Under the pieces are notes generated by a model. The model did not search any database and was not told where the DNA came from. It saw nothing but the letters and a program-made list of their open reading frames with translations. Of a stretch of DNA of 64,000 nucleotides, positions 973 through 51,448 are shown piece after piece. The DNA is taken from positions 74,278,001 to 74,342,000 of the forward strand of contig OZ076409.1 in NCBI GenBank assembly GCA_964187785.1, read 5' to 3'. Source of the DNA: Amphiscolops sp. MND2022 (lineage: Eukaryota). The position numbers were made by a program, and so were the translations under genes. Position 1 is the stretch's first letter. The number at the start of each line of letters is the position of its first letter.

Positions 973-1046
973 TTCGACGACGTATACCAAAATATGTTCG
1001 AGCGCGTTAGCCTAGGTGCCGGGATTTCCATTCGATAAGGAATTCT

Positions 1047-1074
1047 GCGCGTGTGGGTAGGGCCCCTGGCGCGC
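1047..1074 (+). other. 5'-subterminal stem-loop with (T/G)AGGG(T/C) loop (representative copy)
   Basis: GCGCG-tgt-GGG-TAGGGC-CCC-tgg-CGCGC here. Other subfamilies have different but complementary stems around the same loop (7463-7486, 18639-18662, 30872-30893). Confidence 0.8.
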
Positions 1075-4000
1075 TCCTGTGTTTTCGGTTTTCCTACTCC
1101 TAAATAGGCCCCCTGAATTCCGGGATCTCCTAAACTATCCATACGATTTGGCTGAAATTTGGCACACGTACCCCCCTCGGCACGGTGAAGATGATTCCTT
1201 ACTGACGTTTTGCCCGCTAAACATTTTTTGTTGACCAAAATAACGGTTTTTGGTGGAAAATTTTCAACTTTTTTTAAATTTCATCTTATATCTCGCCACG
1301 GGTCAACGCTAGCGCTTCCAAACCTTTCTAACGAAAGTTTGCAAACTGTCTCAGGAATGCTGTGTGAAAATTTCAGCTCAATCGGACCTGAACTCGAGAA
1401 GATATAGCGTTTTTCCGGAGCGGGGGGGTTTCATTTTTCTAACGGTCCAGCTTATCTTTGCCATTTTTTCGAAAATGCACTCGCCTAAAGGCCTCCCCTG
1501 GCCGGTTTTATTCCCAGCAAAACCATTTGGCCCTAAATACGAAGTTTCAGCGTTCCAGCATTCCCGGGCGAAAAGTTGTGGGACTTAGAAAATTTCAAAA
1601 AATTTCAAAAAAATTTTTTTCCGTTATTTGGGCCCCCAAAGTGGGGGAAAAGACCCCCCAACCAGAAAAGCAAGTGAATGCATGTGCCAAGCCCTTGTTT
1701 AGAGGAGAAAAATGCCGTTTAGAACGTCTTTTTATCTTGGCTCAACGTTGACTTATGACGTTTTGAAGGTGATGTTTGGAGGTGTAAAGCAAGTGAATAG
1801 TAAACGTTATGAGTATTTATCTGATCTGAAAGCTATTGAGATGCAATATGGTTTGCTCAAAACGTAATTCATTGCAGTTTGGCAATCAATCAACACCCTT
1901 TGTTGTCGTTTGACATACTTTTTTGTTGTTATAATAAAAAATTTTGTGTATTTATTCATTTTTTTCTCATCAAATAACTTGAAACAGTTGAGTACATTCC
2001 ATCCCCCCCTTCCGGGGGAGATGAGAATGTACTCGCAAAAAGCACCGAACTACGGCCCTTACCTTCCTGAGCTACGCAGTATAAAGATTGCATATTGGTT
2101 CCGACATTTTGATAGAGTTAAATCTTGGTAATCTGTCTGGGTATGCAGAAAAACCAGCACGTGCTTTTTTATACCAAGTTGCTTACAACGACAATTATTT
2201 TATATCAACGCCCCCATATTTATCAACGCCCCCCGTCCGTGGGCATGCCGAGGCATGCCCTTCGACGACGTATACCAAGATATGTTCGAGCGCGTTAGCC
2301 TAGGTGCCGGGATTTTCTATTCGACAAGTTTGCGCGCCTTGGGGAGGGTCCCTTTGCGCGCTTTAAGATCCAGGTGTTTCCAACTCCTAAACGGGCATGT
2401 GATTTCGACGATCTCCTAAACTAGCCATACGATTTGGCTGAAATTTGGCACACGTACCCCCCTCGGCACGGTGAAGATGATTTCCTACTGACGTTTTTCC
2501 CGCTAAACATTTTTTGTTGACCAAAATAACGGTTTTTGGGGTAAAATTTTCAACTTTTTTTAAATTTCATCTTATATCTCGCCACGGGTACACGCTAGCG
2601 CTTCCAAACCTTGCTGACGAAAGTTTGCAAACTGTCCCAGGAATGCTGTGTGAAATTTACAGCTCAATCGGACTTAAACTCGAGGAGATATAGCGTTTTT
2701 CCGGAGCGGGGGGGTTTCATTTTTCTAACGGTCCAGCTTATCTTTGCCATTTTTTCGAAAATGTACTCGCCTAAAGGCCTCCCCTGGCCGGTTTTATTCC
2801 CAGCAAAACCATTTGGCCCTAAATACGGAGTTTCAGCGTTCCAGCATTCCCGGGCGAAAAGTTGTGGGACTTAGAAAATTTCAAAAATTTTCAAAAATTT
2901 TTTTTTCCGTTATTTGGGCCCCCAAAGTGGGGGAAAAGACCCCGCAACCAGTAAAGCAAGTGAATGCATGTGGAAAGCCCTTAGTTAGATGAGAAAAATG
3001 GCGTTTAGAACGTCTTTTTATCTTGGCTCAACGTTGTCTTATGACGTTTTGAAGGTGACCGTTAGATACGGAAAATTGATGTTTTGAGTCTTTATCCCAT
3101 CTGAAAGCCACTGAGATACAACATGTTTTGCTCAAAACGTATTTCATTGCAGTTTCGCTGTCCATTAACACCCTTTGGTGTCTTTTGACGTATTTTTCTT
3201 TTCTATAATAACATTTTTTCTGTGTATTTATTCATTTGTTTTTCATCAAATAACTTGAAACAGTTGAGTACATTCCATCTCCCTTCCCGGGGGAGATGAG
3301 AATGTACTCGCTAAAGGCCGCGAACTACGGTCTATATCTTCCCCAAAACAAAAGAGATTGAAAATTGTTTCATTTTGTGGAAAAAGTTCTTCTTTTTGTA
3401 CACTGTGACTCGACAAAGTGAACGTTTCTTACCTATTTTGAAACTTCCCTCACCAAAAACCATCTCTAACGTCAGCGCCCCCCTACTTGCATCAACGCCC
3501 CCCGTCCGTGGGCATGCCGAGGCATGCCCTTCGACGACGTATACCAAGATATACCTGGAGCGCGGTAGCCGCTAGGTGGCCGTGTCTTTTCGACGTGCTT
3601 TTGCATTGAGGAGTGGGTAGGGCCCCGCGACGACCTAGAAGAATTGGATGCTCACCGAAACGTGCAGAATTCTACGAGATCTCATAGTTTGAGCCATACG
3701 ATTTTTCTGAAATTTGGCATGTGGCCTGGAATTGGTGAGTAGGTAAAACGTGTAGAAGGTAATTTTTCCCAAATTCCACTGTGAGAGGAGATATGGGCAA
3801 ATAACGGACCCAAAAATGGCAAAAATGCACATTTTTCAACTTTGTCAGCCAATATCTCTTTTCCAGGTGCCCGTAGCGTTCCGCACGTGGACATCAATAT
3901 TGCTCAGCGCTGTTGGAGGAGTGCGTGGACAAATTTTGGTTTAAATCGGACTTAAACTTGACGAGAAATTAACGGTTTTTTGGGCGTTTCCGGGGTAAAT

Positions 4001-7000
4001 TTTTTAACGGTCCAGCTTATCTTTGCCATTTTTTCGAAAATGTACATGCCTAAAGGCCTCCCCCTGGCCGAATTTACTCCCAGCAAACCCATTTGGCCCT
4101 AAATACGGAGTTTCAGCGTTCCAGCATTCCGGGGCGGAAAGTTGTGGGACTTGGAAAAATTTCAAAATTTTTTCAAAAATTTTTTTTCCCGTTTTCCGGG
4201 CCCCCAATGAAGGGGAACGACCCCCCAACCAGTATTTTGAGTGAATTCATGTGGAACGCCCATGTTTGGAGGAGAAAAATGCCGTTTAGAACATCTTTTT
4301 ATCTTAACTTGACATTGACTTATGACGTTTTGAATGTGATGTTAGGATATATGAAGCATGTTAAAAGTTGAAGTTTTGAGTCTTTATCTCATCGGAAAAC
4401 CATTGAGATACAAGCAGTTTTGCTAAAAACGATTTTCATTGTAGGTTAGCAGAGTATTAGTACACTTTGATGTCATTTGAGTATTTTTTTCTTCTATATA
4501 ATAACTGTTTTTATGTATTTATTCCAATTTATCTCATCTTTTAACATCAAGCAGTTGAGTACATTTCATCTCCCTTTCGGGGGAGATGAGAATGTACTCG
4601 CTAAAAACCTAATGCTATGGCGCCAATGTTTGGATGGGAAGTTTTCTATGCTTTGAAAAAAGTTATTTTTAATTACTTGATTTTTTAAAACAATAATTAA
4701 CATGAAGTACATTACTTGCTCCTACTACTACCACCATACATCTCTAACGTCAACGCCCCCTGCTTGCATCAACGCCCCATCGTCCGTGGGCATGCCGAGG
4801 CATGCCCTTCGACGACGTATGCCAAATGCCCAGTGCCACGCAGTCTTTTCCCGCTAGGTGGCCGTGTCTTTTCGACGTGCTTTTGCATTGAGGAGTGGGT
4901 AGGGCCCCGCGACGACCTAGAAGAATTGGATGCTCACCGAAACGTGCAGAATTCTACGAGATCTCATAGTTTGAGCCATACGATTTTTCTGAAATTTGGC
5001 ATGTGGCCTGGAATTGGTGAGTAGGTAAAACGTGTAGAAGGTAATTTTTCCCAAATTCCACTGTGAGAGGAGATATGGGCAAATAACGGACCCAAAAATG
5101 GCAAAAATGCACATTTTTCAACTTTGTCAGCCAATATCTCTTTTCCAGGTGCCCGTAGCGTTCCGCACGTGGACATCAATATTGTTCAGCGCTGTTGGAG
5201 GAGTGCGTGGACAAATTTTGGTTTAAATCGGACTTAAACTTGACGAGAAATTAACGGTTTTTTGGGCGTTTCCCGGGTAAATTTTTTAACGGTCCAGCTT
5301 ATCTTTGCCATTTTTTCGAAAATGTACATGCCTAAAGGCCTCCCCCTGGCCGAATTTACTCCCAGCAAACCCATTTGGCCCTAAATACAGAGTTTCAGCG
5401 TTCCAGCATTCCGGGGCGGAAAGTTGTGGGACTTGGAAAAATTTCAAAATTTTTTCAAAATTTTTTTTTTCCCGTTTTCCGGGCCCCCAATGAAGGGGAA
5501 CGACCCCCCAACCAGTATTTTGAGTGAATTCATGTGGAACGCCCATGTTTGGAGGAGAAAAATGCCCTTTAGCACATCTTTTTATCTTAACTTGACATTG
5601 ACTTATGACGTTTTGAATGTGATGTTAGGATATATGAAGCATGTTAAAAGTTGAAGTTTTGAGTCTTTATCTCATCGGAAAACCATTGAGATACAAGCAG
5701 TTTTGCTAAAAACGATTTTCATTGTAGGTTAGCAGAGTATTAGTACACTTTGATGTCATTTGAGTATTTTTTTCTTCTATATAATAACTGTTTTTATGTA
5801 TTTATTCCAATTTATCTCATCTTTTAACATCAAGCAGTTGAGTACATTTCATCTCCCTTTCGGGGGAGATGAGAATGTACTCGCTAAAAACCTAATGCTA
5901 TGGCGCCAATGTTTGGATGGGAAGTTTTCTATGCTTTGAAAAAAGTTATTTTTAATTACTTGATTTTTTAAAACAATAATTAACATGAAGTACAATACTT
6001 GCTCCTACTACTACCACCATACATCTCTAACGTCAACGCCCCCTGCTTGCATCAACGCCCCATCGTCCGTGGGCATGCCGAGGCATGCCCTTCGACGACG
6101 TATGCCAAATGCCCAGTGCCACGCAGTCTTTCCCCGCTAGGTGGCCGGAAATTTTTTTTTCAGCAAAATCTTTGCCATTGGGGGAGGGGCCCCGGATGGC
6201 CAGTAGTACGGTATAGCTTCCTACCAAATCCAGATGGAAAAAACGTGATTTTGGAAACTAGCCGTCAGAATTTGCTCAAATTTTGCATACGGCTTCCTAT
6301 GACAATCCTAAGAACTAATCCCTACTGGCATTTTGCCCAAAAAACGCAAAAAGTTGGTCAAAATCTTAGTTTTTTGGTCAAAAAATGGCGTTTTTTCGAA
6401 AAAAAATTTTTTCAGAGACAATTACTCGTAACTGGTTCACCCAGCGCAAAAACGCCTAGCTGATTTATTGTTGGGCACTTCATGAGGAGTGCGTATACAA
6501 ATTTTCGTCCAGATCGGAAAAAAAATGACTAAGTATTAGCCGGAATTCGGACGCATTTTTTCGCAAATTTTTGAAAACCTAGTCTATCTCTGCCGTTTTT
6601 TTGCCCAGATTTTTTTCCAGGTCCTCTCCTAAAGGCATCCCCTGGCCGGTTTACTTCCCAGAAAAACCATTTGGCCCTAAATACGGAGTTTCAGCGTTCT
6701 AGCATTCCCGGGCGAAAAGATGTGGGACTTAAAAAAAATTCAAAATTTTTCAAAAATTTTTTTTTTTCGTTTTCCGTCCCCCCAATGAAGGGGAACGACC
6801 CCCCAACGAGGATTTTTGGTGAATTCACGTGGAAAGGCCTTGTTTTGTGGAGAAAATTGCCGTTTAGAGCGACTTTTTATCTTAACTTGACGTTGACCTC
6901 TGTCGTTTTGAATTTGATATTAGTATGTGTTGAGCATGTGAAAAGTTGATGATTTCAGTTGTTCTCTCGTGTTCAAGCCATTGAGATACAAGCGGTAGTG

Positions 7001-7429
7001 ATCAAAATGTGATTTATCGCAATTTGGTGGTGCTTTTGGTGTATTTTGATTCTTTTAAATAAAAAGTTGTTCTTTATATATTTGGTGTATTGATACAAAT
7101 GAACAAGAAACAGTTGAGTACATTTCATCTCCCCCCTTGTGGGGGAGATGAGGATGTACCCGCTAAATGACACGCACAATGGCCCAATTTTATTTTTATG
7201 CGACGTTCTCTAGGCTTTTGCGCAAGCCCACTAAAATTTAGACTGGTTTCCTTTTCTTTTACTCCAAAATTTTCCGTACTAACCACCTTACGCACCACCA
7301 GCTCAACGTAACATCTGTAACGTCAACGCCACACACTCTCACTAACGCCCACCGTCCGTGGGCATGCCGAGGCATGCCCTTCGACGACGTATGCCAAATA
7401 GCGCCACAGGGCGCAAACTTGTCCGCTAG

Positions 7430-10400
7430 GTGCGGGGGGGAAACCCCATCCCTTATCTTGGAGGATTCGGGTAGGGTCCTGAATCCGAGTTCAGTGCCGC
7501 CAGCTCTCAGTAGAAATCTGGGCATTTTTTTGCGATCTCGTGATCTAACCATAGGATTTTAAAGTTGGAGCGGCCCCCACCAGATTTTCCAAAGTTATTC
7601 GCCCCCCACCGGGTTCCAGCGTGATTGAAATATTTTGACGGGGTACACGGGCGACCGTTAGGGGTCATTTTGGGGGTAAAATTTATATCCGGTCGCATAA
7701 CTTTTTTCCTGTTGGATTAAAACTTTGGGACCCTGCTAAAAGTTTCTTGACCGTGTTGCGGGGGCTCCGGAGGTCCAAACCAAATTTTTCTATCTTGAAG
7801 CTATCTCCAAGTACCCCCCCGCCCAAACCGTTATTTTTCCGGAAACGCAGGTTTTTGACCCGGAAGGAGTCGTCTGAGCGCGGGGTCGTTAGGTGATGTA
7901 TTGGGGACGGCCTTGAGACGAAGCGGGGGATATATAGTTTGCCGACCCCAGTTTACCCCCCGCACGGGAAATGACCGTTATATGAGCGGGAAAAATGCCC
8001 CCCTCCACGTTTTACCGCTATTTCCGGTGTGAAGGAGTGGGAGTAGCGCTTCGGGTGCCATATATCAAAAATAAGTTTAGACAAGGACCTATCGGAAACA
8101 TGTAGTTTGGGACCCCCTGGACCAACCCGTTAGCGGGAAATGGGGCTTCCGCCTCCTTTTTTTACTGCTAAAACCGTAAAATGGGCATTGAGGGGTAAAT
8201 ATCTCGTGAACGCGTGGAGCAATCGTGTCCATCACTACTACAAGGTTTCATACCCATGATATGGTGCCTTCAGGGGGGCAAACAGATTTCCGCTATCTAT
8301 CACCGTTACCGACTTGGCCCCCCAGCCTAACCGCTATGTGACCGGAAATGTCACTTTTTGAGCCCAAAGGGTCGGTCCCAGCCGGGGAACGTTAGGTAAC
8401 TTATTGTAGTACTCAATGAGACGAGTTGGGGGATATAGTTTCAGTCAACCCCCGTTACCCCTTGGGACCGGAAATGACCGTTATGTGGGTAAATTTGCAA
8501 TTTTTATACTCTTTGAAGTGTATTTAGGTGCGGAAGGAGTGGTAATAGGTGCTTGGACACTATATGATGTAATGGAGGTCGTGAGGAGAGCATTCGGAAA
8601 TAACCGTTATGTTGACCCCAAAGTCCCCCTGGTACCGTTAACGACCGGAAATGGCCAAATTTTGTGTCTATTGGGTACAAATGTTTGGTATTTTATGGAT
8701 AAAAGTACATGGAAGGTGTTTCAAAGGCCTCCAGAAGTGAACATAGTCATGAAACCTTGTGGGGGGTAACGGTATATAGCACCGGAAGTCCAAACCGTTG
8801 GTCACAGAATAGGTTTTTTGGTTTCAAAATGTCTTTAGGCATAGTTTTGTGGGTTGAATCGTCATAATATCAACTAATACGGACTTTTTTCGGAAATAAA
8901 AATTTTTCCCATTAGTTTCAGGGACCTCCAATGCTTCAGTCAACATAACCGTTACATTTTGATAGCCTTTCAAGTTGACCTGGTGTCAACTTGGAAGGGC
9001 TATCCTTCTAAAATCGTTAATCAAGAGTGTTTTTGGGTAGGTATATGTTGCATTAGTACCAATTAGAGCTTCATCAACAGTTTGCCAACGGCAAAAACGA
9101 TGTCGTGATAATTCCGTTATAAAAATATTAGTTAACAAATTGTTTTCAAAGTTGATTTTTTCCATTAAAAATGTGTCCTAATGCCACCAAATTGAATAAA
9201 ATAATAAATGGTATTGACTAAAACTAAATAACAATGAAAAAGAAGATCAACATTTTTATTAGGTCTCATTATGGAAGCTGAAACCTCACGTTTTAGTTTA
9301 CTTAACGTCAACGCCACATACTTTACATCAACGCCCACCGTCTGTGGGCATGCCGAGGCATGCCCTTCGACGACGTATACCAAACAACCTCCATATCTAC
9401 ACCCACCCGCGGTAGCAGCTAGGTGCGGGGGGGTAACCCCAACAAATATATTGGAGGATTCGGGTAGGGTCCTGAATCCGATTTTAACTCTAATAGCTAT
9501 CGATAGGAAATCTTGCAAAAATTTCGGGATCTCGTGATCTAACCATAGGATTTTAAAGTTGGAGCGGCCCCCACCAGATTTTCCAAAATTATTCGCCCCC
9601 CACCGGGTTCCAGCGTGATTGAAATATTTTGTCGGGGTACACGGGCGACCGTTAGGGGTCATTTTGGGGGTAAAATTTATATAATGTCGCATAACTTTTT
9701 TCCTGTTGGATTAAAACTTTGGGACCCTGCTAAAAGTTTCTTGACCGTGTTGCGGGGGCTCCGGAGGTCCAAACCAAATTTTTCTATCTTGAAGCTATCT
9801 CCAAGTACCCCCCCCGCCCAAACCGTTATTTTTCCGGAAACGCAGGTTTTTGACCCGGAAGGAGTCGTCTGAGCGCGGGGTCGTTAGGTGATGTATTGGG
9901 GACGGCTTCGAGACGAAGCGGGGGACGTGTAGTTTGCCGACCCCAGTTTACCCCCCGGACGGGAAATGACCGTTATTTGAGCGGGAAAAATGTCCCCCTC
10001 CACGTTTTACCGCTATTTCCGGTGTGAAGGAGTGGGAGTAGCGCGTCGGGTGATATATAACAAAAGTAGGTTTAGACAAGGACCTATCGGAAACATGTAG
10101 TTTGGGACCCTCTGGACCAACCCGTTAGCGGGAAATGGCGCTTCCGCTTCCTTTTTTTACTGCTAAAACCGTAAAATGGGCATTGAGGGGTAAATATCTC
10201 GTGAACGCGTGGAGCAATCGTGTCCATCACTACTACAAGGTTTCATACCCATGATATGGTGCCTTCAGGGGGGCAAACAGATTTCCGCTATCTATCACCG
10301 TTACCGACTTGGCCCCCCAGCCTAACCGCTATGTGACCGGAAATGTCACTTTTTGAGCCCAAAGGGTCGGTCCCAGCCGGGGAACGTTAGGTAACTTATT

Positions 10401-11397
10401 GTAGTACTCAATGAGACGAGTTGGGGGATATAGTTTCAGTCACCCCCCGTTACCCCTTGGGACCGGAAATGACCGTTATGTGGGTAAAATTGCAATTTTT
10501 ATACTTTTTCAAGTGTATTTAGGTGCGGAAGGAGTGGTAATAGGTGCTTGGACACTATATGAGGTAAGGGAGGACGTGAGGCGAGCATTCGGAAATAACC
10601 GCTATGTTGACCCTAAAGTCCCCCTGGTACCGTAAACGACCGGAAATGGTCAAATTTTGTGTCTATTGGGTACAAATGTTTAGTATTTTGTAGATAAAAG
10701 TATCTATTAGGTGTTTCGACGGCCTGCAATAGTGAACATAGTCATGAAACCTTGTGGGGGTTAACGGGGTATATAGCACCGGAAGTCCAAACCGTTGGAC
10801 ACAGGATAGGTTTTTGGTTTGAAAATGTCTTTCGGCGTACTTTTGTCGACTATTATGGACTATTATTAAAAATTAAAGTTTTTCCATATAGTTTCAGAGA
10901 CTCCGAAATCTCAACCAACATAACCGTTACACTTTGATAGCCTTTCAAGTTGGCCTGGTGTCAACTTGGAAGCGCTATCCTTCTGAAATCGTTAATCAAT
11001 AGTGTTTTTGGGTAGGTATATATTGCATTAGTACCAATTAGAGCTTCATCAACAGTGTATCAACGACAAAAACTATGCCGTCATGATTCCGTTATTAGAA
11101 TCATAGTGAGCAAATAGTTGAAAAAAATGGTTTTTTCCATACAAAATGTGTCCTAAATGCCAGGAAACCTATTTACCTAACAAATGGTATTAATTGGAAT
11201 GTATGTAACAGATTTATAAAAGTTCAAATTGAATATTACATCTCATTATGGAAGCTGAAACGTAATATTTTAGTTTAATTAACGTCAACGCCACACACTT
11301 TACATCAACGCCCACCGTCTGTGGGCATGCCGAGGCATGCCCTTCGACGACGTATACCAAATACATACCCAAACGACGCCCGTACATCCCGGGCTAG
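7430..11397 (+). mobile_element. Two ~2-kb non-autonomous units (7430-9422; 9423-11397)
   Basis: Same terminal motifs as the 1.3-kb units (head GTGCGGGGGG…GGATTCGGGTAGGGTCCTGAATCC; tail palindrome plus CTAG) but a different interior built of ~167-bp degenerate subrepeats. Confidence 0.85.
8961..9004 (+). other. Conserved ~44-nt internal hairpin of the 2-kb units (representative copy)
   Basis: GATAGCCTTTCAAGTTGAC-CTGGT-GTCAACTTGGAAGGGCTATC, present in all six 2-kb units. Confidence 0.75.
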
Positions 11398-12665
11398 GTG
11401 CCGGGATTTCTATTCGTTCAAGGAAGTGGCGCGTGTGGGTAGGGCCCCTGGCGCGCTCTTGTGTTTCGGGTTCTCCTACTCCTAATTCACACCCCAGATT
11501 TCTCGGATCTCGTAAACTATCCATACGATTTGGCTGAAATTTGGCACACAGCTCCGTTGGAACAATGTAAGAACAAATCCCTACTGACGTTTTGCCCGCT
11601 AAACATTTTTTGTTGGTCAAAAATGCGATTTTCCGACAAAATTTTTGACTTTTTTTTCTTTTTCAACTCATATCTCGCCACAGGGTCACGCTAGCGCTTC
11701 GCAGCCTATGATCTTTTTTTGTAGGGCGTTGTCTGTAGAACACGTATGCCAAATTTGGTGGCGATCGGACTTAAACTCAGCGAGATAGAGCCATTTTTTA
11801 GGTGCATTTTTTGACATTTTTTGCATTTGCCGATTTATCTCTGCCATTTTTTGCCCAAATTTTTTTTGAGACACTCTCCTAAAGACCTCCCCTGGCCGGT
11901 TTACCTCCCAACAAAACCATTTGGCCCTAAATACGAAGTTTCAGCGTTCTAGCGTTCTCGGGCGAAAAGTTGTGGGACTTAGAATAGTTTTTATGGTAAC
12001 GCAAAATGTGTAAAGTCAACTTCAGGCCTCCCAAAGTCAAAGAACTTCCACACAACTAGGATTGCAAGTGGATGCATGTGGAAAGTACTCGGATAGACGA
12101 GGAAAATGAGCTATAGAACGTCTCTGTATCTTAATCTGACGTTGACTTATGATGTTTTGAATGTGGGCTTCCTAAGGGGTCCCAAATTGAAAATTTTTAA
12201 AGAAAATTAATATCGTCAAAAATTCATCGGAATGTCTGCAATATACAGCAGAGCATGTTCAATTGTAGCTGTCTAATGCATCAACGCCTTTCAAGGTCTT
12301 TTAACTCAGTTTCAAAATTTTGTACACTGTATTATTCATCCGAGAGCACAAAACAGTTGAGTACATTCCATCTCCCCTCCGTGGGAGATGAGAATGTACT
12401 CGCTAAAGTCCAGGTGCTACAGCCCATATTTGTTTTTTTGCGGCGCTATTTATGCTAGTGCGCACACGTATTAACTTTTTACCTGATTTTACTTTTGTCA
12501 GTACTTTTACTTTGACTTGACATATACTGAACATTATGTCCTTCTATCATACACATGACTAACGTCAACGCCCCATCCTTGCTTCAACGCCCACCGTCCG
12601 TGGGCATGCCGAGGCATGCCCTTCGACGACGTATGCCAAAGATATTCCCGAGCGCGTTAGCCTAG
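11398..12665 (+). mobile_element. Single 1268-bp unit lying between 2-kb units; its 5' ~800 bp is the closest relative of the autonomous element's 5' end
   Basis: It shares diagnostic stretches CACACAGCTCCGTTGGAACA and AAAGTCAACTTCAGGCCTCCCAAAGTC with 48874-49670 and is bounded by CTAG|GTG junctions. Confidence 0.85.
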
Positions 12666-15600
12666 GTGCGGGGGGGAAACCCCTTCCTTTATCTTGGAGG
12701 ATTCGGGTAGGGTCCTGAATCCGAGTTCAGTGCCGCCAGCTCTCAGTAGAAATCTGGGAAATTTTTTGCGATCTCGTGATCTAACCATAGGATTTTAAAG
12801 TTGGAGCGGCCCCCACCAGATTTTCCAAAGTTATTCGCCCCCCACCGGGTTCCAGCGTGATTGAAATATTTTGTCGGGGTACACGGGCGACCGTTAGGGG
12901 TCATTTTAGGGGTAAAATTCATATTGGGCCACATAACTTTTTTCTGTTGATTTAAAACTTTAGGACCCTGCTAAAAGTTTCTTGACCATGTTGCAGGGGC
13001 CCCGGAGGTCCAAACCAAATTTTTCTATCTTGAAGCTATCTCCAAGTACCCCCCCGCCCAAACCGTTATTTTTCCGGAAACGCCGGTTTTTGACCCGGAA
13101 GGAGTCGTCTGAGCGCGGGGTCGTTAGGTGATGTTTTGGGGACGGCCTCGAGACGAAGCGGGGGATATATAGTTTGCCGATCCCAGTTTACCCCCCGCAC
13201 GGGAAATGACCGTTATATGAGCGGGAAAAATGCCCCCCTCCACGTTTTACCGCTATTTCCGGTGTGAAGGAGTGGGAGTAGCGCGTCGGGTGTTATATAA
13301 CAAAAGTAGGTTTAGACAAGGACCTATCGGAAACATGTAGTTTGGGACCCCCTGGACCAACCCGTTAGCGAGAAATGGGGCTTCCGCCTCCATTTTTTAA
13401 TGCTAAAACCGTAAAATGGGCATTGAGGGGTAAATATCTCGTGAACGCGTGGAGCAATCGTGTCCATCACTACTACAAGGTTTCATACCCATGATATGGT
13501 GCCTTCAGGGGGGCAAACAGATTTCCGCTATCTATCACCGTTACCGACTTGGCCCCCCAGCCTAACCGCTATGTGACCGGAAATGTCACTTTTTGAGCCC
13601 AAAGGGTCGGTCCCAGCCGGGGAACGTTAGGTAACTTATTGTACTACTCAATGAGACGAGTTTGGGGATATAGTTTCAGTCACCCCCCGTTACCCCTTGG
13701 GACCGGAAATGACCGTTATGTGGGTAAATATGCAATTTTTATACTTTTTCAAGTGTATTTAGGTGCGGAAAGAGTGGTAATAGGTGCTTGGACACTTAAT
13801 GAGGTAAGGGAGGACGTGAGGCGAGCATTCGGAAATAACCGTTATGTTGACCCTAAAGTCCCCCTGGTACCGTAAACGACCGGAAATGGTCAAATTTTGT
13901 GTCTATTGGGTACAAATGTTTGGTATTTTATGGATAAAAGTACCTGGAAGGTGTTTTAAAGGCCTCCAGAAGTGAACATAGTCATGAAACCTTGTGGGGG
14001 GTAACGGTATATAGCACCGGAAGTCCAAACCGTTGGTCACAGAATAGGTTTTTTGGTTTCAAAATGTCTTTAGGCATAGTTTTGTGGGTTGAATCGTCAT
14101 AATATCAACTAATACGGACTTTTTTCGGAAATAAAATTTTTTCACATTAGTTTCAGGGACCTCCAATGCTTCAGTCAACATAACCGTTACATTTTGATAG
14201 CCTTTCAAGTTGACCTGGTGTCAACTTGGAAGGGCTATCCTTCTAAAATCGTTAATCAAGAGTGTTTTTGGGTAGGTATATGTTGCATTAGTACCAATTA
14301 GAGCTTCATCAACAGTTTGCCAACGGCAAAAACGATGTCGTGACAATTCCGTTATAAAAATATTAGTTAACAAATTGTTTTCAAAGTTGATTTTTTCCAT
14401 TAAAAATGTGTCCTAATGCCACCAAATTGAATAAAATAATAAATGGTATTGACTAAAACTAAATAACAATGAAAAAGAAGATCAACATTTTTATTAGGTC
14501 TCATTATGGAAGCTGAAACCTCACGTTTTAGTTTAATTAACGTCAACGCCACATACTTTACATCAACGCCCACCGTCTGTGGGCATGCCGAGGCATGCCC
14601 TTCGACGACGTATACCAAACAACCTCCATATCTACACCCACCCGCGGTAGCAGCTAGGTGCGGGGGGGTAACCCCTACAAAGATATTGGAGGATTCGGGT
14701 AGGGTCCTGAATCCGATTTCAACTCTAATAGCTATCGATAGGAAATCTTGCAAAAATTTCGGGATCTCGTGATCTAACCATAGGATTTTAAAGTTGGAGC
14801 GGCCCCCACCAGATTTTCCGAAAATTAGCGCCCCCCACCAGGTTCCATACCCCGGAAAATTTTTTTCTGGCCACACGGGCGACCGTTAGGGGGTCATTTT
14901 AGGGGTAAAATTCATATTGGTCCATATAACTTTTTTCCTGTTGATTTAAAAGTTTGGGAACCCTACTAAAGGTTTTTTGACCATGTTGCAAGGGCTCCGG
15001 AGGTGCAAACCAAATTTTTCTATCTTGAAGCTATCTCCAAGTACCCCCCCGCTCAAACCGTTATTTTTCCGGAAACGCAGGTTTTTGACCCGGAAGGAGT
15101 CGTCTGAGCGCGGGGTCGTTAGGTGATGTATTGGGGACGGCCTTGAGACGAAGTGGGGGACATGCAGTTTGCCAACCTCAGTTTACCCCCCGGACGGGAA
15201 ATGACCGTTATATGAGCGGGAAAAATGCCCCCCTCCACGTTTTACCGCTAATTCCGGTGTGAAGGAGTGGGAGTAGCCCGTCGGGTGCCATATATCAAAA
15301 GTAGGTTTAAACAAAGACCTATCGGAAACATGTGGTTTGGGACCCCCTGGACCAACCCGTTAGCGGGAAATGGGGCTTCCGCCTCCTTTTTTTACGGTTG
15401 AAAACGGAAAATGGGCATTGAGGGGTAAATATCTCGTGAACGCGTGGAGCTACGGTGTCCTTCACTACTACCAGGTTTCATACCCATGATATGGTGCCTT
15501 CAGGGGGGCAAACAGATTTCCGCTATCTATCACCGTTACGGACTTGGCCCCCCAGCCTAACCGTTAAGTGACCGGAAATGTCACTTTTTGAGCCCAAAGG

Positions 15601-18600
15601 GTCGGTCCCAGCCAGGGAACGTTAGGTAACTTATTGTAGTACTCATTGAGATGAGTTGGGGGACATAGTTTCAGTCACCCCCCGTTACCCCTTAAGACCG
15701 GAAATGACCGTTATGTGAGTAAATTTGCCGTTTTTGTCCTATTTGAAGGGCATTTAAATGCGGAAGGAGTGGTAATCGGTGCTTGGACACTATATGAGGT
15801 AAGGGAGGATATGAGGCGAGCATTCGGAAATAACCGTTATGTTGACCCCAAAGTCCCCCTGGTACCGTAAACGACCGGAAATGGTCAAATTTTCTGTTTA
15901 TAGGGTACAAATGTTTGGTATTTTGTAGATAAAAGTATCTATTAGGTGTGTCGACGGTCTGCAGTAGTGAACATAGTCATGAAACCTTGTGGGGGGTAAC
16001 GGTATATAGCACCGGAAGTCCAAACCGTTGGAGACAGGATAGGTTTTTTGGTTTTAAAATGTCTTTCGGCGTACTTTTGTCGACTATTAAGGACTACTTT
16101 TAAAAAATTAAAGTTTCTCCATATAGTTTTAGAGACTCCGAAACCTCAACCAACATAACCGTTACCTCATGATAGCCTTTCAAGTTGGCCTGGTGTCAAC
16201 TTCGAAGGGCTATCCTTCAAAAATCGTCAATCAAGTATGTTTTTGGGTATGTTTGTATCATTTTAGAATCAAATAGAGCTTCAAGAAAAGTTTTCCAACG
16301 ACAAAAACTATGTCGTGATGATTCCGTTATCTGAATAATAGTTAGCAAATTGTTGAGAAAATTGATTTTTTCCATATAAAATGTGTCCTAATTGCCAGGA
16401 AACCTATTTAACTAACAAATGGTATTAATTGGAATGTATGTAACAGATTTATAAAAGTTCAAATTGAATATTACCTTTCAATATGGAAGCTGAAACGTAA
16501 TATTTTAGTTTAATTAACGTCAACGCCACACACTTTACATCAACGCCCACCGTCTGTGGGCATGCCGAGGCATGCCCTTCGACGACGTATGGCAAATCCC
16601 TTCTAACGACGCCCGTACATCCCGGGCTAGGTGCGGGGGGGAAACCCCAACAAAATTTTTGGAGGATTCGGGTAGGGTCCTGAATCCGAGTTCAGTGCTG
16701 CCAGCTTTCGTTAAGAAAATTTGGATAGGATTCGGGATCTCGTGATCTAACCATAGGTTTTTAAAGTTGGAGCGGCCCCCACCAGATTTTCCGAAAATTA
16801 GCGCCCCCCACCGGGTTCCATACCCCGGAAAATTTTTTTCTGGCCACACGGGCGACCGTTAGGGGGTCATTTTAGGGGTAAATTTCATATTGGGCCACAT
16901 AACTTTTTTTCTGTTGATTTAAAACTTTGGGACCCTGCTAAAAGTTTCTTGGCCGTGTTGCAGGGGCCCCGGAGGTCCAAACCAAATTTTTCAATCTTGA
17001 AGCTATCTCCAAGTACCCCCCCGCCCAAAACGTTATTTTTCCGGAAACGCAGGTTTTAGACCCGGAAGGAGTCGTCGGAGCGCGGGGTCGTTAGGTGATG
17101 TATTGGGGACGGCCTTGAGACGAAGCGGGGGACATGTAGTTTACCGACCTCGGTTTACCCCTCGGACAGGAAATGACCGTTATATGAGCGGGAAAAATGC
17201 CCCCCTCCACGTTTTACCGCTATTTCCGGTGTGAAGGAGTGGGAGTAGCGCGTCGGGTGCCATATATCAAAAGTAGGTTTAAACAAGGACCTATCGGAAA
17301 CATGTAGTTTGGGACCCTCTGGACCAACCCGTTAGCGGGAAATGGCGCTTCCGCTTCCTTTTTTTACTGCTAAAACCGTAAAATGGGCATTGAGGGGTAA
17401 ATATCTCGTGAACGCGTGGAGCAATCGTGTCCATCACTACTACAAGGTTTCATACCCATGATATGGTGCCTTCAGGGGGGCAAACAGATTTCCGCTATCT
17501 ATCACCGTTACTGACTTGGCCCCCCAGCCTAACCGCTATGTGACCGGAAATGTCACTTTTTGAGCCCAAAGGGTCGGTCCCAGCCGGGGAACGTTAGGTA
17601 ACTTATTGTAGCACTCAATGAGACGAGTTGGGGGACATAGTTTCAGTCACCCCCCGTTACCCCTTGAGACCGGAAATGACCGTTATGTGGGTAAATTTGC
17701 ATTTTTTATACTCTTTGAAGTGCATTTATGTGCGGAAGGAGTGGTAATAGGTGCTTGGACACTATATGAGGTAAGGGAGGACGTGAGGCGAGCATTCGGA
17801 AATAACCGTTATGTTGACCCTAAAGTCCCCCTGGTACCGGAAGTGACCCGTAATGGTCAAATTTTGTGTTCAAAGGGTACAAATGTTTGGTGTTTTATGG
17901 ATAACAGTGCCTATCAGGTGTTTCGACGGTCTGCAGTCGTGAACATAGTCATGAAACCTTGTGGGGGGTAACGGTATATAGCACCGGAAGTCCAAAACTT
18001 TGGAGAAAGGATAAGTGTTTTGGTTTTAAAATGTCTTTCGGCCTACTTTTGTCGACTATTATGGTCTATTTTTGAAAAATAAAGTTTTTCCATATAGTTT
18101 CAGAGACTCCGAAACCTCAACCAACATAACCGTTACGTTATGATAGCCTTTCAAGTTGGCCTGGTGTCAACTTGGAAGGGCTATCCTTCAAAAATCATTA
18201 ATCAAGTGTGTTTTTGAGTATGTTTGTATTACTTTAGAATCAATTAGAGCTTCAAGAAAAGTTTGCCAACGACAAAAACTATGTCGTGATGATTCCGTTA
18301 TTAGAATAATGGTTAAGAAAATGTTGATAAATTTGATTCTTTACATTTCAAATGTGTCCTAAATGCCAGAAAACCTCTTTACCAAACAAATGGTTTTGAG
18401 TGAATTGTATATAACAGCTAATAAAAGTTCAAATTGAATCTTACGTTTCATTATTCAAGCTAAAACTTCATAACATAGTTTAATTAACGTCAACGCCACA
18501 CACTTTACATCAACGCCCACCGTCCGTAGGCATGCCGAGGCATGCCTTTCGACGACGTATACCAAATTCCACCCACACAACACCCCCGAGCGCGGTAGCA

Positions 18601-20601
18601 GCTAGGTGCGGGGGGGTAACCCCAACTTTTTTCTTGGAGGAATCGGGTAGGGTCCTGATTCCGAGTTCAGTGCCGCCAGCTATCGTTAAAAACCTATACC
18701 TTTTAAACCCGATCTCGAGAACTAACCACGCCCCTTCTTTAATTTTTTGGCCCCCACTCACTTTTTGAGAGTAGATCGCCCCCCATTGGGTTCGATGTTG
18801 GGCAAAAATGGAGATCATGGGTAACGGGGACCGTTAAGGGGTAACTCAGGGGGTAAAATTTATTTTTTGCGTCATATCTTTTCCCCCCGTGGATTTAGCG
18901 CTTCCGGTCAGCAGACAAAACCTCATGTACGTGATACGGGGCCTCCGTAGGTCCAAACAAAATTTTTCTATCATGCACCGTTACGGACTTGCCCCCCCGG
19001 CCCAACCGTTATTTTGCCGGAAATTGCACTTTTTGACCGGGAAGGAGTCGTCTGAGCACGGAGTCGTTTGGTAATGTTTTGTAGTGCATCTGGAGACGTG
19101 TTGGGGGACATGTAGTTTGCCGGCCCCAGTTTACCCCCCGGACGGGAAATGACCGTTATGTGAGTTTTAAAACTACCCCCCTTCAATTTTCCCCGTTATT
19201 TCCGGTGTGAAGGAGTGGGAGTAGCGCGTCGGGTGCCATATATCAAAAGTAGGTTTAGACAAGGACCAACCGGAAACTTGTGGTTTGGGACCCCCTGACC
19301 CAACCCGTTAGCCGTTATAAGGGTGATCGCCTCCTTTTTTTACTCTCAAAACCGGAAAATGGGCATTGAGGGGTAAATATCTCGTGAACGCGTGGAGCAA
19401 TCGTGTCCATCACTACTACAAGGTTTCATACCCATGATATGGTGCCTTCAGGGGGGCAAACAGATTACCGCTATCTATCACCGTTACCGACTTGGCCCCC
19501 CAGCCTAACCGCTATGTGACCGGAAATTGCACTTTTTGAGCCCAAAGGGTCGATCCTAGCCGGGCAACGTTAGGTAACTTATTGTAGTACTCATTGAAAC
19601 GAGTTGGGGGACATAGTTTCAGTCACCCCCCGTTACCTCTTAGGACCGGAAATGACCGTTATGAGGGTAAAATTGCAATTTTTATACATTTTGAAGGGCA
19701 TTTAGGTGCGGAAGGAATGGTAATCGGTGCTTGGACACTATATGATGTAATGGAGGTCGTGAGGAGAGCATTCGGAAGTAACCGTTACGTTGACCCCAAA
19801 GTCCCCCTGGTACCGTTAACAACCGGAAATGGCCAAATTTTGTGTTTATAGGGTACAAATGTTTGGTATTTTATGGATAAAAGTACCTGGAAGGTGTTTT
19901 AAAGGCCTCCAGAAGTGAACATAGTCATGAAACTTTGTGGGGGGTAACGGTATATAGCACCGGAAGTCCAAACCGTTAGTTACAGAATAGGTTTTTTGGT
20001 TTCAAAATGTCTTTAGGCGTAGTTTTGTGGGTTGAATCGTCATAATATCAACTAATACGGACTTTTTTCGGAAATAAAATTTTTTCACATTAGTTTCAGG
20101 GACCTCCAATGTTTCAGTCAACATAACCGTTACATTTTGATAGCCTTTCAAGTTGGCCTGGTGTCAACTTGGAAAGGCTATCCTTCTAAAATCGTTAATC
20201 AAGAGTGTTTTTGGGGAGGTATATGTTGTATTAGTACCAATTAGAGCTTCATCAACAGTTTGCCAACGGCAAAAACGATGTCTTGATAATTCCGTTAAAA
20301 GAATATTAATTAACAAATTGTTTCCAAAGTTGATTTTTTCCATTCGAAGTGTGTCCTAATGCCACCAAATTGAATAAAATAATAAATGGTATTGACTAAA
20401 ACTAAATAACATTGAAAAAGAAGCTCAACATTTTTAATAGGTCTCATTATGGAAGCTGAAACCTCACGTTTTAACTTAATTAACGTCAACGCCACATACT
20501 TTACATCAACGCCCACCGTCCGTAGGCATGCCGAGGCATGCCTTTCGACGACGTATACCAAATTCCACCCACACAACACCCCCGAGCGCGGTAGCAGCTA
20601 G
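12666..20601 (+). mobile_element. Four ~2-kb non-autonomous units (12666-14657; 14658-16630; 16631-18605; 18606-20601)
   Basis: Homologous to 7430-11397 throughout and bounded by the same junction motif. Confidence 0.85.
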
Positions 20602-23600
20602 GTGGCCGTGTCTTTTCGACGTGCTTTTGCATCGAGGAGTGGGTAGGGCCCCGCGACGACCTAGAAGAATTGGATGCTCACCGAAACGTGCAGAATTCTA
20701 CGAGATCTCATAGTTTGAGCCATACAATTTTTCTGAAATTTGGCATGTGGCCTGGAATTGGTGAGTAGGTAAAACGTGTAGGAGGTGATTTTTCCCAAAT
20801 TCCACTGTGAGACGAGATATGGGCAAATAACGGTCCCAAAAATGGCAAAAATGCACTTTTTTCAACTTTGTCAGCCCATATCTCGTTCCCAGGTGCCCGG
20901 AGCGGGACGCGTTAAGCTGATTATAAACTCTAGGGTGTTGAGGCTGTACGGGGAAGTCAGGCCCGTTCCGATCGGACTTGTAGTCTTGGAGAAATAACGG
21001 TATTTTTGGGGAACCTTTTCTAACGGTCCAGCTTATCTTTGCCATTTTTTCGAAAATGTACTCGCCTAAAGGCCTCCCCCTGGCCGAATTTACTCCCAGC
21101 AAAACCATTTGGCCCTAAATACGGAGTTTCAGCGTTCCAGCATTCCCGGGCGAAAAGTTGTGGGACTTGGAAAATTTTCAAAAATTTTCAAAAAATTTTT
21201 TTTCCGTTTTCCGGGCCCCCAATGAAGGGGAAACGACCCCCCAACCAGTATTTTGAGTGAATTCATGTGGAAAGCCCTTGTTTTGACGAGAAAAATACCG
21301 TTTAGAACATCTTTTTATCTTGACTCAACGTTGACTTATGACGTTTTGAATGTGATGTAAGGATGTAGGAGGCATGTGATAAGTTGATGTTTTGAGTCTT
21401 TATCTCATATGAAAGCGGTTGAGATGCAAGCTGTCCTGCTCAAAACGTCTTTCGTTGTAACTTTCCAGTGCACCAATACCCTTTGGTGTCATATAAACAT
21501 ACTTTTTGTCGATATATTAACAATTTTAATGTATTTATTCCAATTTTTATTATCTTATAACTCAAAACAGTTGAGTACATTTCATCTCCCTTTCGGGGGA
21601 GATGAGAATGTACTCGCTAAAGACCTAGCGCCATGACCAAAAATTTGAAACCCACGTTTTTTATCTTCTTACAGACTTGTTTTTGTATTTTTTCGGAATT
21701 TTTTAAAAATTAATATACTTGAAATACATTACTTGACTTTACTACTACAACCCACCTCCAACGACAACGCCCCCCTGCTTGCATCAACGCCCACCGTCCG
21801 TGGGCATGCCGAGGCATGCCCTTCGACGACGTATGCCAAATGCCCAGTGCCACGCAGTCATTATCGCTAGGTGCCGGGATTTCTATTCGATAAAGTATGT
21901 GGCGCGTGTGGGTAGGGTCCCTGGCGCGCTCTTGGGTATGGTGTTCACCAGCTAGGAAATAGGGGTCGATTTTTCGGGATCTCCTAAACTAGCCACACGA
22001 TTTGGCTGAAATTTGGCACACGTACTCCCCTCGGCACGGTGAAGATGATTTCCTACTGACGTTTTTCCCGCAAAATTTTTTTTGTTGTCCAAAATAACGG
22101 TTTTTGGGGTAAAATTTTGAACTTTTTTTAAATTTCATCTTATATCTCGCCACGGGTTTACGCTAGCGCTTCAAAACCCTGCTAAAGAAAGCTTGCAAAC
22201 TGTCTCAGGAATGCGGTGTGAAATTTTCAGCTCAATCGGACTCAAACTCGGGGAGATATAGCGTTTTTCCGGAGCGGGGGGGTTTCATTTTTCTAACGGT
22301 CCAGCTTATCTTTGCCATTTTTTCGAAAATGCACTCGCCTAAAGGCCTCCCCTGGCCGGTTTTATCCCCAGCAAAACCATTTGGCCCTAAATACGGAGTT
22401 TCAGCGTTCCAGCATTCCCGGGCGAAAAGTTGTGGGACTTAGAAAAATTCAAAAATTTTCAAAAATTTTTTTTTCCGTTTTTTGGGCCCCCAAAGTGGGG
22501 GAAAAGACCCCCCAACCAGGAAGGCAAGTAAATGCATGTGGAAAGCCCTTGTTTAGAGGAGAAAAATGCCGTTTAGAACGTCTTTTTATCTTGGCTCAAC
22601 GTTGACTTATGACGTTTTGAAGGTGATGTTTGGAGGTGTAAAGCACGAGAATAGTAAACGTTATGAGTATTTATCTGATCTGAAAGCCATTGAGATGCAA
22701 TATGGTTTGCTCAAAACGTAATTCATTGCAGTTTGGCAGTCAATCATCACCCTTTGTTGTAGTTTGACATACTTTTTTGTTGTTATAATAAAAAATTTTG
22801 TGTATTTATTCATTTTTTTCTCATCAAATAACTTGAAACAGTTGAGTACATTCCATCCCCCCCTTCCGGGGGAGATGAGAATGTACTCACAAAAAGCCCC
22901 GAACTACGGCCCTTACCTTCCCGAGCTACGCAGTATAAGGATTACATATTGGTTCCGACATTTTCATAGAGTTATATCTTGGTAATCTGTCTGGATATGC
23001 ACAAAAATCAGCACGTGCCTTTTAATACCAAGTTGCTCATAACGACAATTATTTTATATCAACGCCCCCATATTTATTAACGCCCCCCGTCCGTGGGCAT
23101 GCCGAGGCATGCCCTTCGACGACCCGCACCAAAATATACGTCGAGCGCGGTAGCAGCTAGGTGCCGGGATTTCTATTCGATAAAGTATGTGGCGCGTGTG
23201 GGTAGGGTCCCTGGCGCGCTCTTGGGTATGGTGTTCACCAGCTAGGAAATAGGGGTCGATTTTTCGGGATCTCCTAAACTAGCCACACGATTTGGCTGAA
23301 ATTTGGCACACGTACTCCCCTCGGCACGGTGAAGATGATTTCCTACTGACGTTTTTCCCGCAAAATTTTTTTTGTTGTCCAAAATAACGGTTTTTGGGGT
23401 AAAATTTTGAACTTTTTTTAAATTTCATCTTATATCTCGCCACGGGTTTACGCTAGCGCTTCAAAACCCTGCTAAAGAAAGCTTGCAAACTGTCTCAGGA
23501 ATGCGGTGTGAAATTTTCAGCTCAATCGGACTCAAACTCGGGGAGATATAGCGTTTTTCCGGAGCGGGGGGGTTTCATTTTTCTAACGGTCCAGCTTATC

Positions 23601-47600: not shown

Positions 47601-48873
47601 AGGGCCCCTGGCGCGCTCTTGTGTCCCTGTTCTCATAACTGCAATTTCCGGCAGCATTCTGAGCGATTTTTTAAACTATCCATACGATTCGGCTGAAATT
47701 TGGCATGTGAGTTCCTATGACAGTTCTAAGAAACATTTCCTTCTGGCGTTTTGCCCGGAAAATTTTTTTTGTTGACTTATAACGGTTTTTTTGGCCAAAA
47801 AATGCGTTTTTTTCAAAAAAATTTTTTTTCGGAGCCCATATCTTTTTTCAGGGTGCCCGGAGCGGGACGCGTTAAACTGATTATAAACTCTACGGTTCAT
47901 GGGCTTTACGGAGAACCTAGGCTCGTTTCGATCGGACAAATAGTCTTGGAGATATAACGGCATTTTTTGGGAATTTTTTGAAAATTTTTCTAACGGTCCA
48001 GCTTATCTTTGCCATTTTTTCGAAAATGTACTCGCCTAAAGGCCTCCCCTGGCCGGTTTTAATCCCAGCAAAACCATTTGGCCCTAAATACGGAGTTTCA
48101 GCGTTCCAGCATTCCCGGGCGAAAAGTTGTGGGACTTAGAAAAATTTCAAAATTTTTCAAAAATTTTTTTTCCGTTTTCCGCCCTCCCCCCCGAGGGGAA
48201 AAGACCCCCCAACCAGTAATTTGAGTGAATTCATGTGGAAAGGCCATGTTTAGAGAAGAAAAATGCCGTTTAGATCGTCTTTTTATTTTAACCTGTCGTT
48301 GACTTATGTTGTTTTGAAGGTGATGTTTGGATGTGTGAAGCATGTGAAAAGGTAATTTATTGTGTCTTTAGCTCTTCTAAAAGTCATTGAGATACACGGT
48401 GTGTGACTCAGAACGTGTTTAATTCTAATTTAGCAATGCATCGACACTTTTTTGTGTCTTTTGACTCTGTTTTAAAAAATTTTTCCGACTAAAATCAAAA
48501 ATTATTTATATTTATTCACATTTTTTTTCTGATCTCATGACTCGAAACAGTTGAGTACATTCCATCTCCCTTCACGGGGGAGATGAGAATGTACTCTTTA
48601 GAGACCAGGTACTACAGTACTTACCTTCCCCGAGCAACGCCCCATAAAAATTGCGTTTTGATCCAGATATTTTGACATAATTTTATCTTTGTAATTTGAC
48701 TGGAAATGAAGAAAATGCCGCACGTGCTCTTTTATATCAAGTATCTTAACAACGCCATCTCTTTTACGTCAACGCCCCATAGTTCACATCAACGCCCCCC
48801 GTCCGTGGGCATGCCGAGGCATGCCCTTCGACGACGTATACCAAAATATGCTCCCGAGCGCGGTAGCCGCTAG
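20602..48873 (+). mobile_element. Twenty-two ~1.27-1.32-kb non-autonomous units of several interleaved subfamilies
   Basis: Junctions recur every 1267-1316 bp. Heads include GTGGCCGTGTC (20602, 28302, 29569, 32110, 33378), GTGGCCGCGTC (30838), GTGCCGGGATTTC (e.g. 21871, 23161, 34659, 38513, 41093, 43672, 44982, 46268), GTGCCGGTGT (24448, 25739, 27026, 35947, 37241, 39799, 42381) and GTGCCCGG (47558). Confidence 0.85.
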
Positions 48874-51210: not shown

Positions 51211-51444
51211 GTATTGTTTTAGCATATTTAGAATCAAAATTGAATTTTTCACGTTTGAAAGATTATAAGATTTACAAGTTCTCTGATTTTATCCATCGTC
51301 TAAAACTTGATTGACTCGATTTTGGTAATTGTTCCAGTGGCGCTTCAACTATTAATTCGATTTCATTAGCCAATTCGGTTGATCCGTATCAAATTTTAGT
51401 CCCAATGAGATACTGAAATGTTCAATTTCGTTTCATATTTTCAG
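51211..51444 (+). other. Possible 5'-UTR intron (or trans-splice acceptor) just upstream of the RepHel ATG
   Basis: A pyrimidine-rich TTTCATATTTTCAG|G ends at 51444, 4 nt before the ATG. A candidate donor AAG|GTATTG lies at 51210/51211. Confidence 0.4.
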
Positions 51445-51448
51445 GGAT

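Follow-up and report, generated by a model that had tools for sequence, protein, structure and literature searches.

The elements of a head-to-tail array in Amphiscolops sp. MND2022 carry, near their left ends, a hairpin with a near-invariant 12-nt head held at a nearly constant distance from the junction between units. This hairpin is a real and probably selected left-end signal of a Helitron-like element. The window analysed is a stretch of 64,000 nt (GCA_964187785.1, OZ076409.1:74,278,001-74,342,000, forward strand), the features of which are listed in Table 1. The initial annotation had proposed a selected + strand structure at a rolling-circle left end, which is upheld by a RepHel ORF in a unit with the same ends, by partner switching at CTAGGTG and by clean compensatory changes in the stem.

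Table 1. Features of the array, with positions counted from the first base of the window
Feature	Position	Strand	Remark
Head-to-tail array	1016..63456	+	37 complete units in a single orientation; units cut after CTAG
Hairpin, commonest stem type	1047..1074	+	GC outer stem, internal loop, GGG/CCC head
Hairpin, weak stem type	3610..3631	+	7/38 units; 5 bp continued by a G·A/A·G tandem in place of Watson-Crick pairs
Hairpin, stem type GCCAT/ATGGC	6174..6200	+	loop GAGGGG
3' palindrome of the unit preceding 7430	7360..7379	+	conserved; candidate terminator
3' linker	7380..7425	+	variable; includes a short stretch imperfectly complementary to the start of the same unit
Junction CTAGGTG	7426..7432	+	invariant; CTAG would close one unit (putative 3' end) and GTG open the following one (putative 5' start)
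Spacer	7433..7462	+	variable in sequence, near-constant in length
Small GGGG/CCCC hairpin	7436-7447	+	inside the spacer, 2-kb family
Left-end hairpin of unit 7430	7463..7486	+	2-kb family; 9-bp stem including one G·T
Head GGG-KAGGGB-CCY	7469..7480	+	near-invariant; one per junction, 38/38
Loop TAGGGT of unit 7430	7472-7477	+	
Hairpin, compensatory variant	18639..18662	+	T-A to A-T in the stem
Hairpin, contiguous stem type	30872..30893	+	8 contiguous pairs
12,016-nt unit	48874..60889	+	same ends; candidate autonomous element
Hairpin of the 12-kb unit	48905-48932	+	
2328-aa ORF	51449..58435	+	uninterrupted; HUH Rep, Pif1 helicase and C-terminal GIY-YIG-like domain

Cut after CTAG, the array comprises 30 units of 1.27-1.32 kb, 6 of about 2 kb and 1 of 12,016 nt. 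The 20-nt 3' palindrome occurs at 38 places in the window, each followed by CTAGGTG, a heptamer present 38 times on the + strand and 0 times on the - strand; at all 38 junctions CTAG is followed directly by GTG. The cut probably falls after CTAG, judging from the CTRR ends of Helitrons and from the flanks of two metagenome loci (L010 and L013, see below). A unit would then start with G, and a cut one base later would give a TG start. The 2-kb family aligns to other units over its last ~120 nt only, that is, at the 3' end, while the 12-kb unit has its first ~750 nt and its 3' end in common with the short units.

The CTAGGTG junction is a module switch point at which units change partners. The post-junction spacer tracks the downstream body (Mantel r 0.86), the upstream linker hardly (r 0.22), and 11 linker types and 8 spacer types make up 21 linker/spacer combinations. 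Bodies upstream and downstream of junctions are correlated (r 0.49), indicating some local duplication. Among adjacent unit pairs, 3/34 are at least 97% identical and 15/34 less than 80%. Given the switch point and the mostly unlike neighbours, the units are discrete elements joined head to tail, and a simple rolling-circle concatemer as the sole origin was rejected because near-identical neighbours are few and many fall below 80%. Separately, the resemblance of units 7430 and 12666 (97%) and of units 9423 and 14658 (91%) suggests a duplicated multi-unit block at window 7430-16630; exchange of linkers between bodies is seen as well (r 0.45) and points to recombination in the common 3' palindrome. 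A contig piece from one sequencing run (word share 0.19, 14 contig pieces) spans the junction at 9419 and has none of the listed differences in 9448-9481; the run may come from the same organism and was left out as support.

The sequence GGGKAGGGBCCY matches the window 38 times, exclusively on the + strand, against 0.06 matches expected by chance; since the copies are related, this is one match per unit rather than 38 independent events. This core spans nt 40-51 of the unit, within a hairpin that begins about 30 nt in, and provides the sole 8-mers conserved in position in at least 33/37 units (first 400 nt examined); it is present in the 2-kb family and in the ORF-bearing 12-kb unit as well. 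The hairpin of unit 7430, with a 9-bp stem and its loop at 7472-7477, had been placed and spelled correctly in the initial annotation (7463-7486), and the loop consensus offered there, (T/G)AGGG(T/C), fits 37 of the 38 junctions: the hexamers are TAGGGC (16), TAGGGT (13), GAGGGT (8) and GAGGGG (1). We also confirmed that the loop starts at the 43rd base after CTAG, that is, after a gap of 42 nt, at 29/38 junctions; the others start at the 41st to 45th base, with gaps of 40 nt (1), 43 nt (2) and 44 nt (6). Between types, spacers are just 21-61% identical and differ in length by 0-3 nt (9 short units compared). For the same pairs, 42-nt windows in the unit bodies have zero net indel in 23-72% of cases, so the constant spacing alone is moderate evidence. 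No intramolecular G-quadruplex pattern was found at the motif, and the pattern matches fall elsewhere.

Ancestry and gene conversion in a satellite-like array might keep such a motif without selection, the stems being chance pairings in G/C-rich sequence. The relatedness of the copies, the correlation of bodies across junctions (r 0.49) and the ability of alternating GC arms to cross-pair with other stem types fit a neutral relic of this kind. We regard it as highly improbable, however, given that the core is invariant beside 5'-side spacers that differ as much as stated above, and that it recurs in the 2-kb family, which has no common body. The compensatory pair in the six 2-kb units also speaks against it: here variation within nt 29-59 is confined to two columns, which pair with each other and change from T-A to A-T (chance about 0.006 by a post-hoc hand estimate).

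About five stem types occur among the 38 copies, and four of the five keep at least 8 pairs with different sequences. Most stems contain internal loops or bulges, and the inner GGG/CC is invariant except for C/T. When the flanks were shuffled around the fixed core in 21 distinct 40-mers, 17 folded better than chance (p<=0.05) and 2 were borderline. The two variants of the 3576 type (7/38 units) folded as DNA no better than shuffles (p 0.93 and 0.84). These 7 copies lack a Watson-Crick outer stem; some are 99% identical to one another and were thus recently copied. With DNA parameters the expected register of this weak type did not form; RNA parameters gave that register with the 6-nt loop open, yet again no better than shuffles. 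Over all variants, all six loop bases are unpaired in the DNA minimum-energy structure of just 12/21. Tandem G·A/A·G closes three stem types, and in the weak type such a tandem replaces two Watson-Crick pairs. These tandems are often stable and would be present on the + strand only.

We examined covariation in an ungapped alignment of 15 chosen variants, using an 11-pair structure derived from the same sequences. Paired cells amounted to 75.8%, compared with 61.9% after shuffling (0/500) and at most 55.8% in slid alignments, and the covariation score was 0.363 versus 0.180 shuffled (0/500). Measures resistant to kinship were not significant in this set, neither pairs changed on both sides (32/500) nor pair types (271/500). 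RNAalifold recovered the same head and a 3-bp outer stem from 17 ends, and for five stem types the native arm combinations paired better than exchanged ones, ranking 4 of 120. Taken as a whole, the stem-pairing tests show a handful of independent compensatory events rather than full covariation. The earlier description of the stems as fully covarying is therefore retained in part: stems do differ and a few clean compensatory changes exist, as in the six 2-kb units, but with only about five types, 7/38 copies without the outer stem and non-significant conservative measures, 'fully' does not hold.

The related statement that G-T pairs are tolerated only on the + strand agrees with our counts. 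Distinct column/pair cells in 12 straight-register rows (3 bulged rows left out) comprised 4 G·T, 0 A·C, 7 G·A and 2 T·C, and the + strand folds better than the - strand in 20/21 variants, by only 0.1-2.1 kcal/mol.

The 12-nt core could instead be a double-stranded binding site for the N-terminal region of the transposase or for a host factor, with the stem secondary. Such a site would suit a core that is near-invariant while stems vary, the 7/38 units that manage without a good stem, and a gap of 42 nt, about four helical turns; it would also suit the double-stranded donors that Helraiser requires (PMC4778049, PMC5876387) and the separate bind and nick sites described for pT181 and phiX174 (PMC5714925). 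We consider it unlikely in view of the compensatory changes, the preference for own arms and the retention of at least 8 pairs by four of five stem types despite differing sequences; a spacing variation of ±2 nt would, moreover, shift the helical phase.

Quite unlikely, too, is a structure that acts in RNA, as part of a 5' transcript region, or as a host-read priming site for the second strand on the + circle. G·U pairs and tandem G·A are usual in RNA, and the weak 3576 type takes its expected register only with RNA parameters, though no better than shuffles. Single-strand origins read by host enzymes are described (PMC5714925). Neither role would need a fixed distance to a DNA junction, and an Rfam search gave 0 matches at gathering thresholds.

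At the other end of the units, the palindrome sits 39-54 nt before CTAG (38 junctions), and thus its spacing is not fixed. The idea that the two structures bracket the nick site symmetrically is not borne out, given this loose 3' spacing and the tight spacing at the 5' end. Small hairpins adjoin CTAG in some linkers only. The palindrome has a compensatory change of its own, from G-C to A-T at the base, in 4/38 copies (18528, 20524, 32041 and 60819), among them that of the ORF-bearing unit.

Because CTAG is palindromic, polarity could also be reversed, with the - strand transferred, the hairpin being a terminator that precedes a - strand CTAG by about 40 nt, and the long palindrome acting as the origin. 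Elements with reversed ORFs have been published (PMC3627910, PMC5148889, PMC13085455). The long palindrome shows no + strand preference (-12.6 versus -13.5 kcal/mol) and marks the more sequence-conserved end, two points in favour of reversal. Reversal nevertheless seems very unlikely, as the wobbles favour the + strand for the hairpin and, at L010 and L013, two flanks ending in CTRG stand just before a common G-start on the ORF strand.

The two ends of a unit also show a slight correspondence. Units starting with GTGG contain GCCAC in their own 3' linker in 9/9 cases and units starting with GTGC in 0/28; the match extends to the next unit in the array in just 6/9, and the association represents one or two events on the body tree. 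GTGG and GCCAC amount to a very short imperfect terminal inverted repeat, for example at window 6141 with 7401-7405. Own tail-head pairing was slightly better than permuted pairing (p 0.04 for 30 distinct pairs and 0.012 for 15 representatives, both uncorrected for kinship). Perfect end-linking repeats (ATIR) were at most 5-8 nt long in 37/37 units, equal to shuffles.

The predicted product of the 12-kb unit matches two Pfam families above their cut-offs, Helitron_like_N (PF14214, 34 bits; cut-off 28.9) and PIF1 (PF05970, 31.9 bits; cut-off 25.9). The HUH Rep motifs lie at aa 1020, 1097 and 1279, Walker A at aa 1734 and the GIY-YIG-like domain at aa ~2211. With the Rep motifs PHIH and YxxKY and two tyrosines, the protein combines a two-tyrosine HUH Rep with a Pif1 helicase, the fusion that defines the RepHel superfamily. 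When the Rep region was modelled (mean pLDDT 84.9), its best structural match was Helraiser 7lcc (Z 13.7, rmsd 4.3, 223 aligned), and the next structure reached Z 5.7. The GIY-YIG domain of the window's own protein has no Pfam match and looks degenerate in alignment; for the C-terminus of the family profile, the nearest solved structure is SLX1 (E 4e-13).

Relatives of the 2328-aa protein number 142 representatives at E<=1e-30, and the 90% cluster of the exact protein has 13 members; relatives on long contigs (P0161-P0167) are 72-79% identical. A C-terminal GIY-YIG was present in 14/16 relatives scanned and DUF6570 in 0/16; none of the 17 proteins scanned matched either DUF6570 or AP endonuclease. 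Language-model neighbours of the protein are Helitron_like_N clusters. A profile search with the Rep domain, word-seeded and hence non-exhaustive, returned 24 proteins at E<=2e-34, four of them hypothetical proteins of Perkinsus olseni (42-44% identity). A gap then follows to E 0.09-3, the range in which plant Helitron-type proteins appear, at E 0.3-0.4 to the Rep family profile. The score gap in this word-seeded search suggests that the transposase group is a clade separate from HLE1 and HLE2. An atlas search with the N-terminal 671 aa gave no usable match and no candidate hairpin-binding domain, and no relatives were confirmed in viral and prokaryotic collections.

By analogy with Helraiser, the hairpin would be recognised by Rep and might act in initiation, and we think it rather likely that the hairpin is the left-end (LTS) recognition signal, read by RepHel on the + strand and spacing the enzyme to the nick. 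The RepHel of the 12-kb unit would read the head base by base on + strand ssDNA, which at the hairpin might be melted, extruded or freshly displaced. The stem would present the head to RepHel, and the ~40-nt spacer would be a ruler placing the HUH tyrosine at the junction. The enzyme would remain bound to the 5' G, unwind with Pif1, pause at the 3' palindrome and then cut at the next CTAG; a pause followed by such a cut would explain why spacing is tight at the 5' end and loose at the 3' end. The odds are about even between a hairpin that acts before the first nick, in initiation, and one that retains the 5' end so that the circle can be joined and the strand transferred.

Several results count against a recognition hairpin: the 7/38 units with weak stems, the non-significant conservative covariation, the restriction to about five stem types, a loop open in 12/21 folds, spacing that is only moderate evidence and the occurrence of the motif in 0/21 distant loci. 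The analogy is also strained in that the cleavage determinants of Helraiser are described as lying within the terminal 40 nt (PMC4778049), whereas the core here occupies nt 40-51; the need of Helraiser for double-stranded donors is a further point against. The left end of Helitrons is essential, and its recognition is defined, in the accounts consulted, only as 'within the terminal 40 nt'. Here, head, stem and ruler are directly testable, as stem, spacer and body vary while the 12-nt head and the 42-nt distance are held, with an intact transposase ORF nearby.

In published work on Helraiser, the LTS proved essential and the 3' hairpin acts as a terminator; circles with head-to-tail junctions arise, donors have to be double-stranded, and cleavage at the junction is confined to the + strand (PMC4778049, PMC5876387). 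The array elements resemble Helraiser and HLE1, as described, in having HUH Rep and Pif1 in one ORF, a 3' CTAG, a 3' palindrome, a head-to-tail junction and the Rep fold. CTAG, present at 38/38 junctions, conforms to the CTRR of HLE1 3' ends, the exact cut being placed as above. Unlike HLE1, they lack a 5' TC, all 38 junctions reading CTAGGTG, and have an extra 5' hairpin, a remote Rep sequence and, in most relatives, a C-terminal GIY-YIG. The HLE1 3' hairpin is reported 10-12 nt (about 11) from the end, compared with 39-54 nt for the main palindrome here. A further mark of HLE1 is insertion between A and T; the window contains no edge of the array.

A 5' hairpin with compensatory changes has already been described in Helitron2 (Bao & Jurka 2013, PMC3627910), and related HLE2 end structures have been reported (Chellapan 2016, PMC5148889; Thomas 2014, PMC4067079; PMC11417382). 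Like Helitron2/Helentron (HLE2) in these descriptions, the array elements have hairpins at both ends, and short complementarity links the 5' start to the 3' subterminal region. The HLE2 5' hairpin, however, is built on an ATIR of 8-15 bp, 0-2 nt from the end, whereas that of the array is subterminal with a fixed head, and the array units contain no perfect end repeat over 8 nt. HLE2 is marked by a 5' T start (TT in proto-Helentron), an AP endonuclease in Helentrons and DUF6570 (PMC11417382). Our elements have no match to DUF6570 or AP endonuclease; they would start with G and end in CTAG if the cut follows CTAG, or start with TG after a cut one base later. A captured GIY-YIG is reported once in that source, in a moss HLE2 family (PMC11417382).

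The third Helitron clade described in Paramecium (PMC13085455) is likewise divergent from HLE1 and HLE2, with a long ORF, one fixed orientation and an end motif that resembles the target. An alveolate link is common to both, the named relatives of the window's Rep coming from Perkinsus olseni. The Paramecium ends, as published, are CCAA with insertion into telomeric repeats (PMC13085455), unlike the CTAG of the array, where the telomere patterns tried were absent. By eye, the published Hel01 ORF of Paramecium ends about 250 nt past the last helicase motif and so leaves no room for a GIY-YIG. A telomeric-repeat target, suggested by TAGGG, was rejected for our elements, as the patterns tried were absent from the window and the 21 loci.

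Among other HUH elements, IS200/IS605, IS91 and the origins of rolling-circle plasmids have a 'bind' site, structural or sequence-based, apart from the nick, comparable to the role proposed for the array hairpin, and IS91 inserts in a tetranucleotide-directed, orientation-specific manner, as the array elements would (PMC10288648, PMC5714925). These systems are prokaryotic, with small transposases described without Pif1, and serve as a working analogy only. A Replitron, which has a Y1 Rep without helicase and terminal direct repeats (PMC10288648), was ruled out by the Pif1 domain. Arrays of Helitrons in tandem have been described before, most of them being truncated concatemers or internal satellites (PMC12628747, PMC12001565, PMC11934779), and the comparison also drew on PMC8788227 and PMC6431247. 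Neither a Rep-Pif1-GIY-YIG group with G-start ends nor a left-end hairpin that combines a fixed head with a fixed distance was found in our search of mainly open literature, Repbase apart. In that search the hairpin's fixed head and its spacing, like the G-start ends and the divergent group of transposases, had no published counterpart, unlike the 5' hairpin with compensatory changes.

It is possible, although we would not count on it, that these elements represent an undescribed third eukaryotic RepHel type, characterized by Rep, Pif1 and an SLX1-like GIY-YIG, a G-start and a CTAG end. Such elements would insert right after CTRG, preferably at the 3' end of their own kind, and so build mixed-family head-to-tail arrays; their transposase would gauge a distance of about 40 nt between the nick and a hairpin with a fixed head, and short end-to-end pairing would check the joint. 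If this were true, the array would offer a mutagenesis series made by nature, showing how Helitron transposases recognise their origin. As the ends fit the rules of neither HLE1 nor HLE2, end-based annotation tools would probably miss the transposase group.

In metagenome loci of distant relatives, the core motif was found in 0/21, few of these loci reaching an end. Two of the loci, L010 and L013, with 26% identity to the full-length window protein, share 9.5 kb. In both, this stretch opens with G, preceded by CTGG at one locus and by CTAG at the other. This single case fits a G-start after CTRG. The 5' end shared by L010 and L013, the sole left end of a distant relative that could be placed, lacks the loop motif, which indicates that the head is family-specific. 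The points at which this distant relative meets its two different flanks, each directly behind CTRG, are L010:197-202 and L013:1414-1419, and L010:9885-9916 is a likely 3' end, with a 6-bp palindrome and a 2-nt loop shortly before CTAG. A homologous unnamed ORF lies beside the RepHel gene at L006:233-1672, L010:10322-11242 and L017:5580-6854 (E 1e-8 to 1e-19); present at three unrelated loci, it is possibly an accessory gene of the RepHel group.

Two further conserved features lie inside the array units. The 1.28-kb families contain a long, conserved internal hairpin with a variable loop at 7118-7159 and equivalent positions (unit nt ~960-1015; z -6.3 as DNA), which does not align in the 2-kb family or the 12-kb unit. 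A highly conserved block at unit nt 470-570 (for example ~6610-6730) is common to the 1.28-kb families and the 12-kb unit, with 36-38/50 columns invariant in the 9 units compared, and is possibly a promoter or a second binding site.
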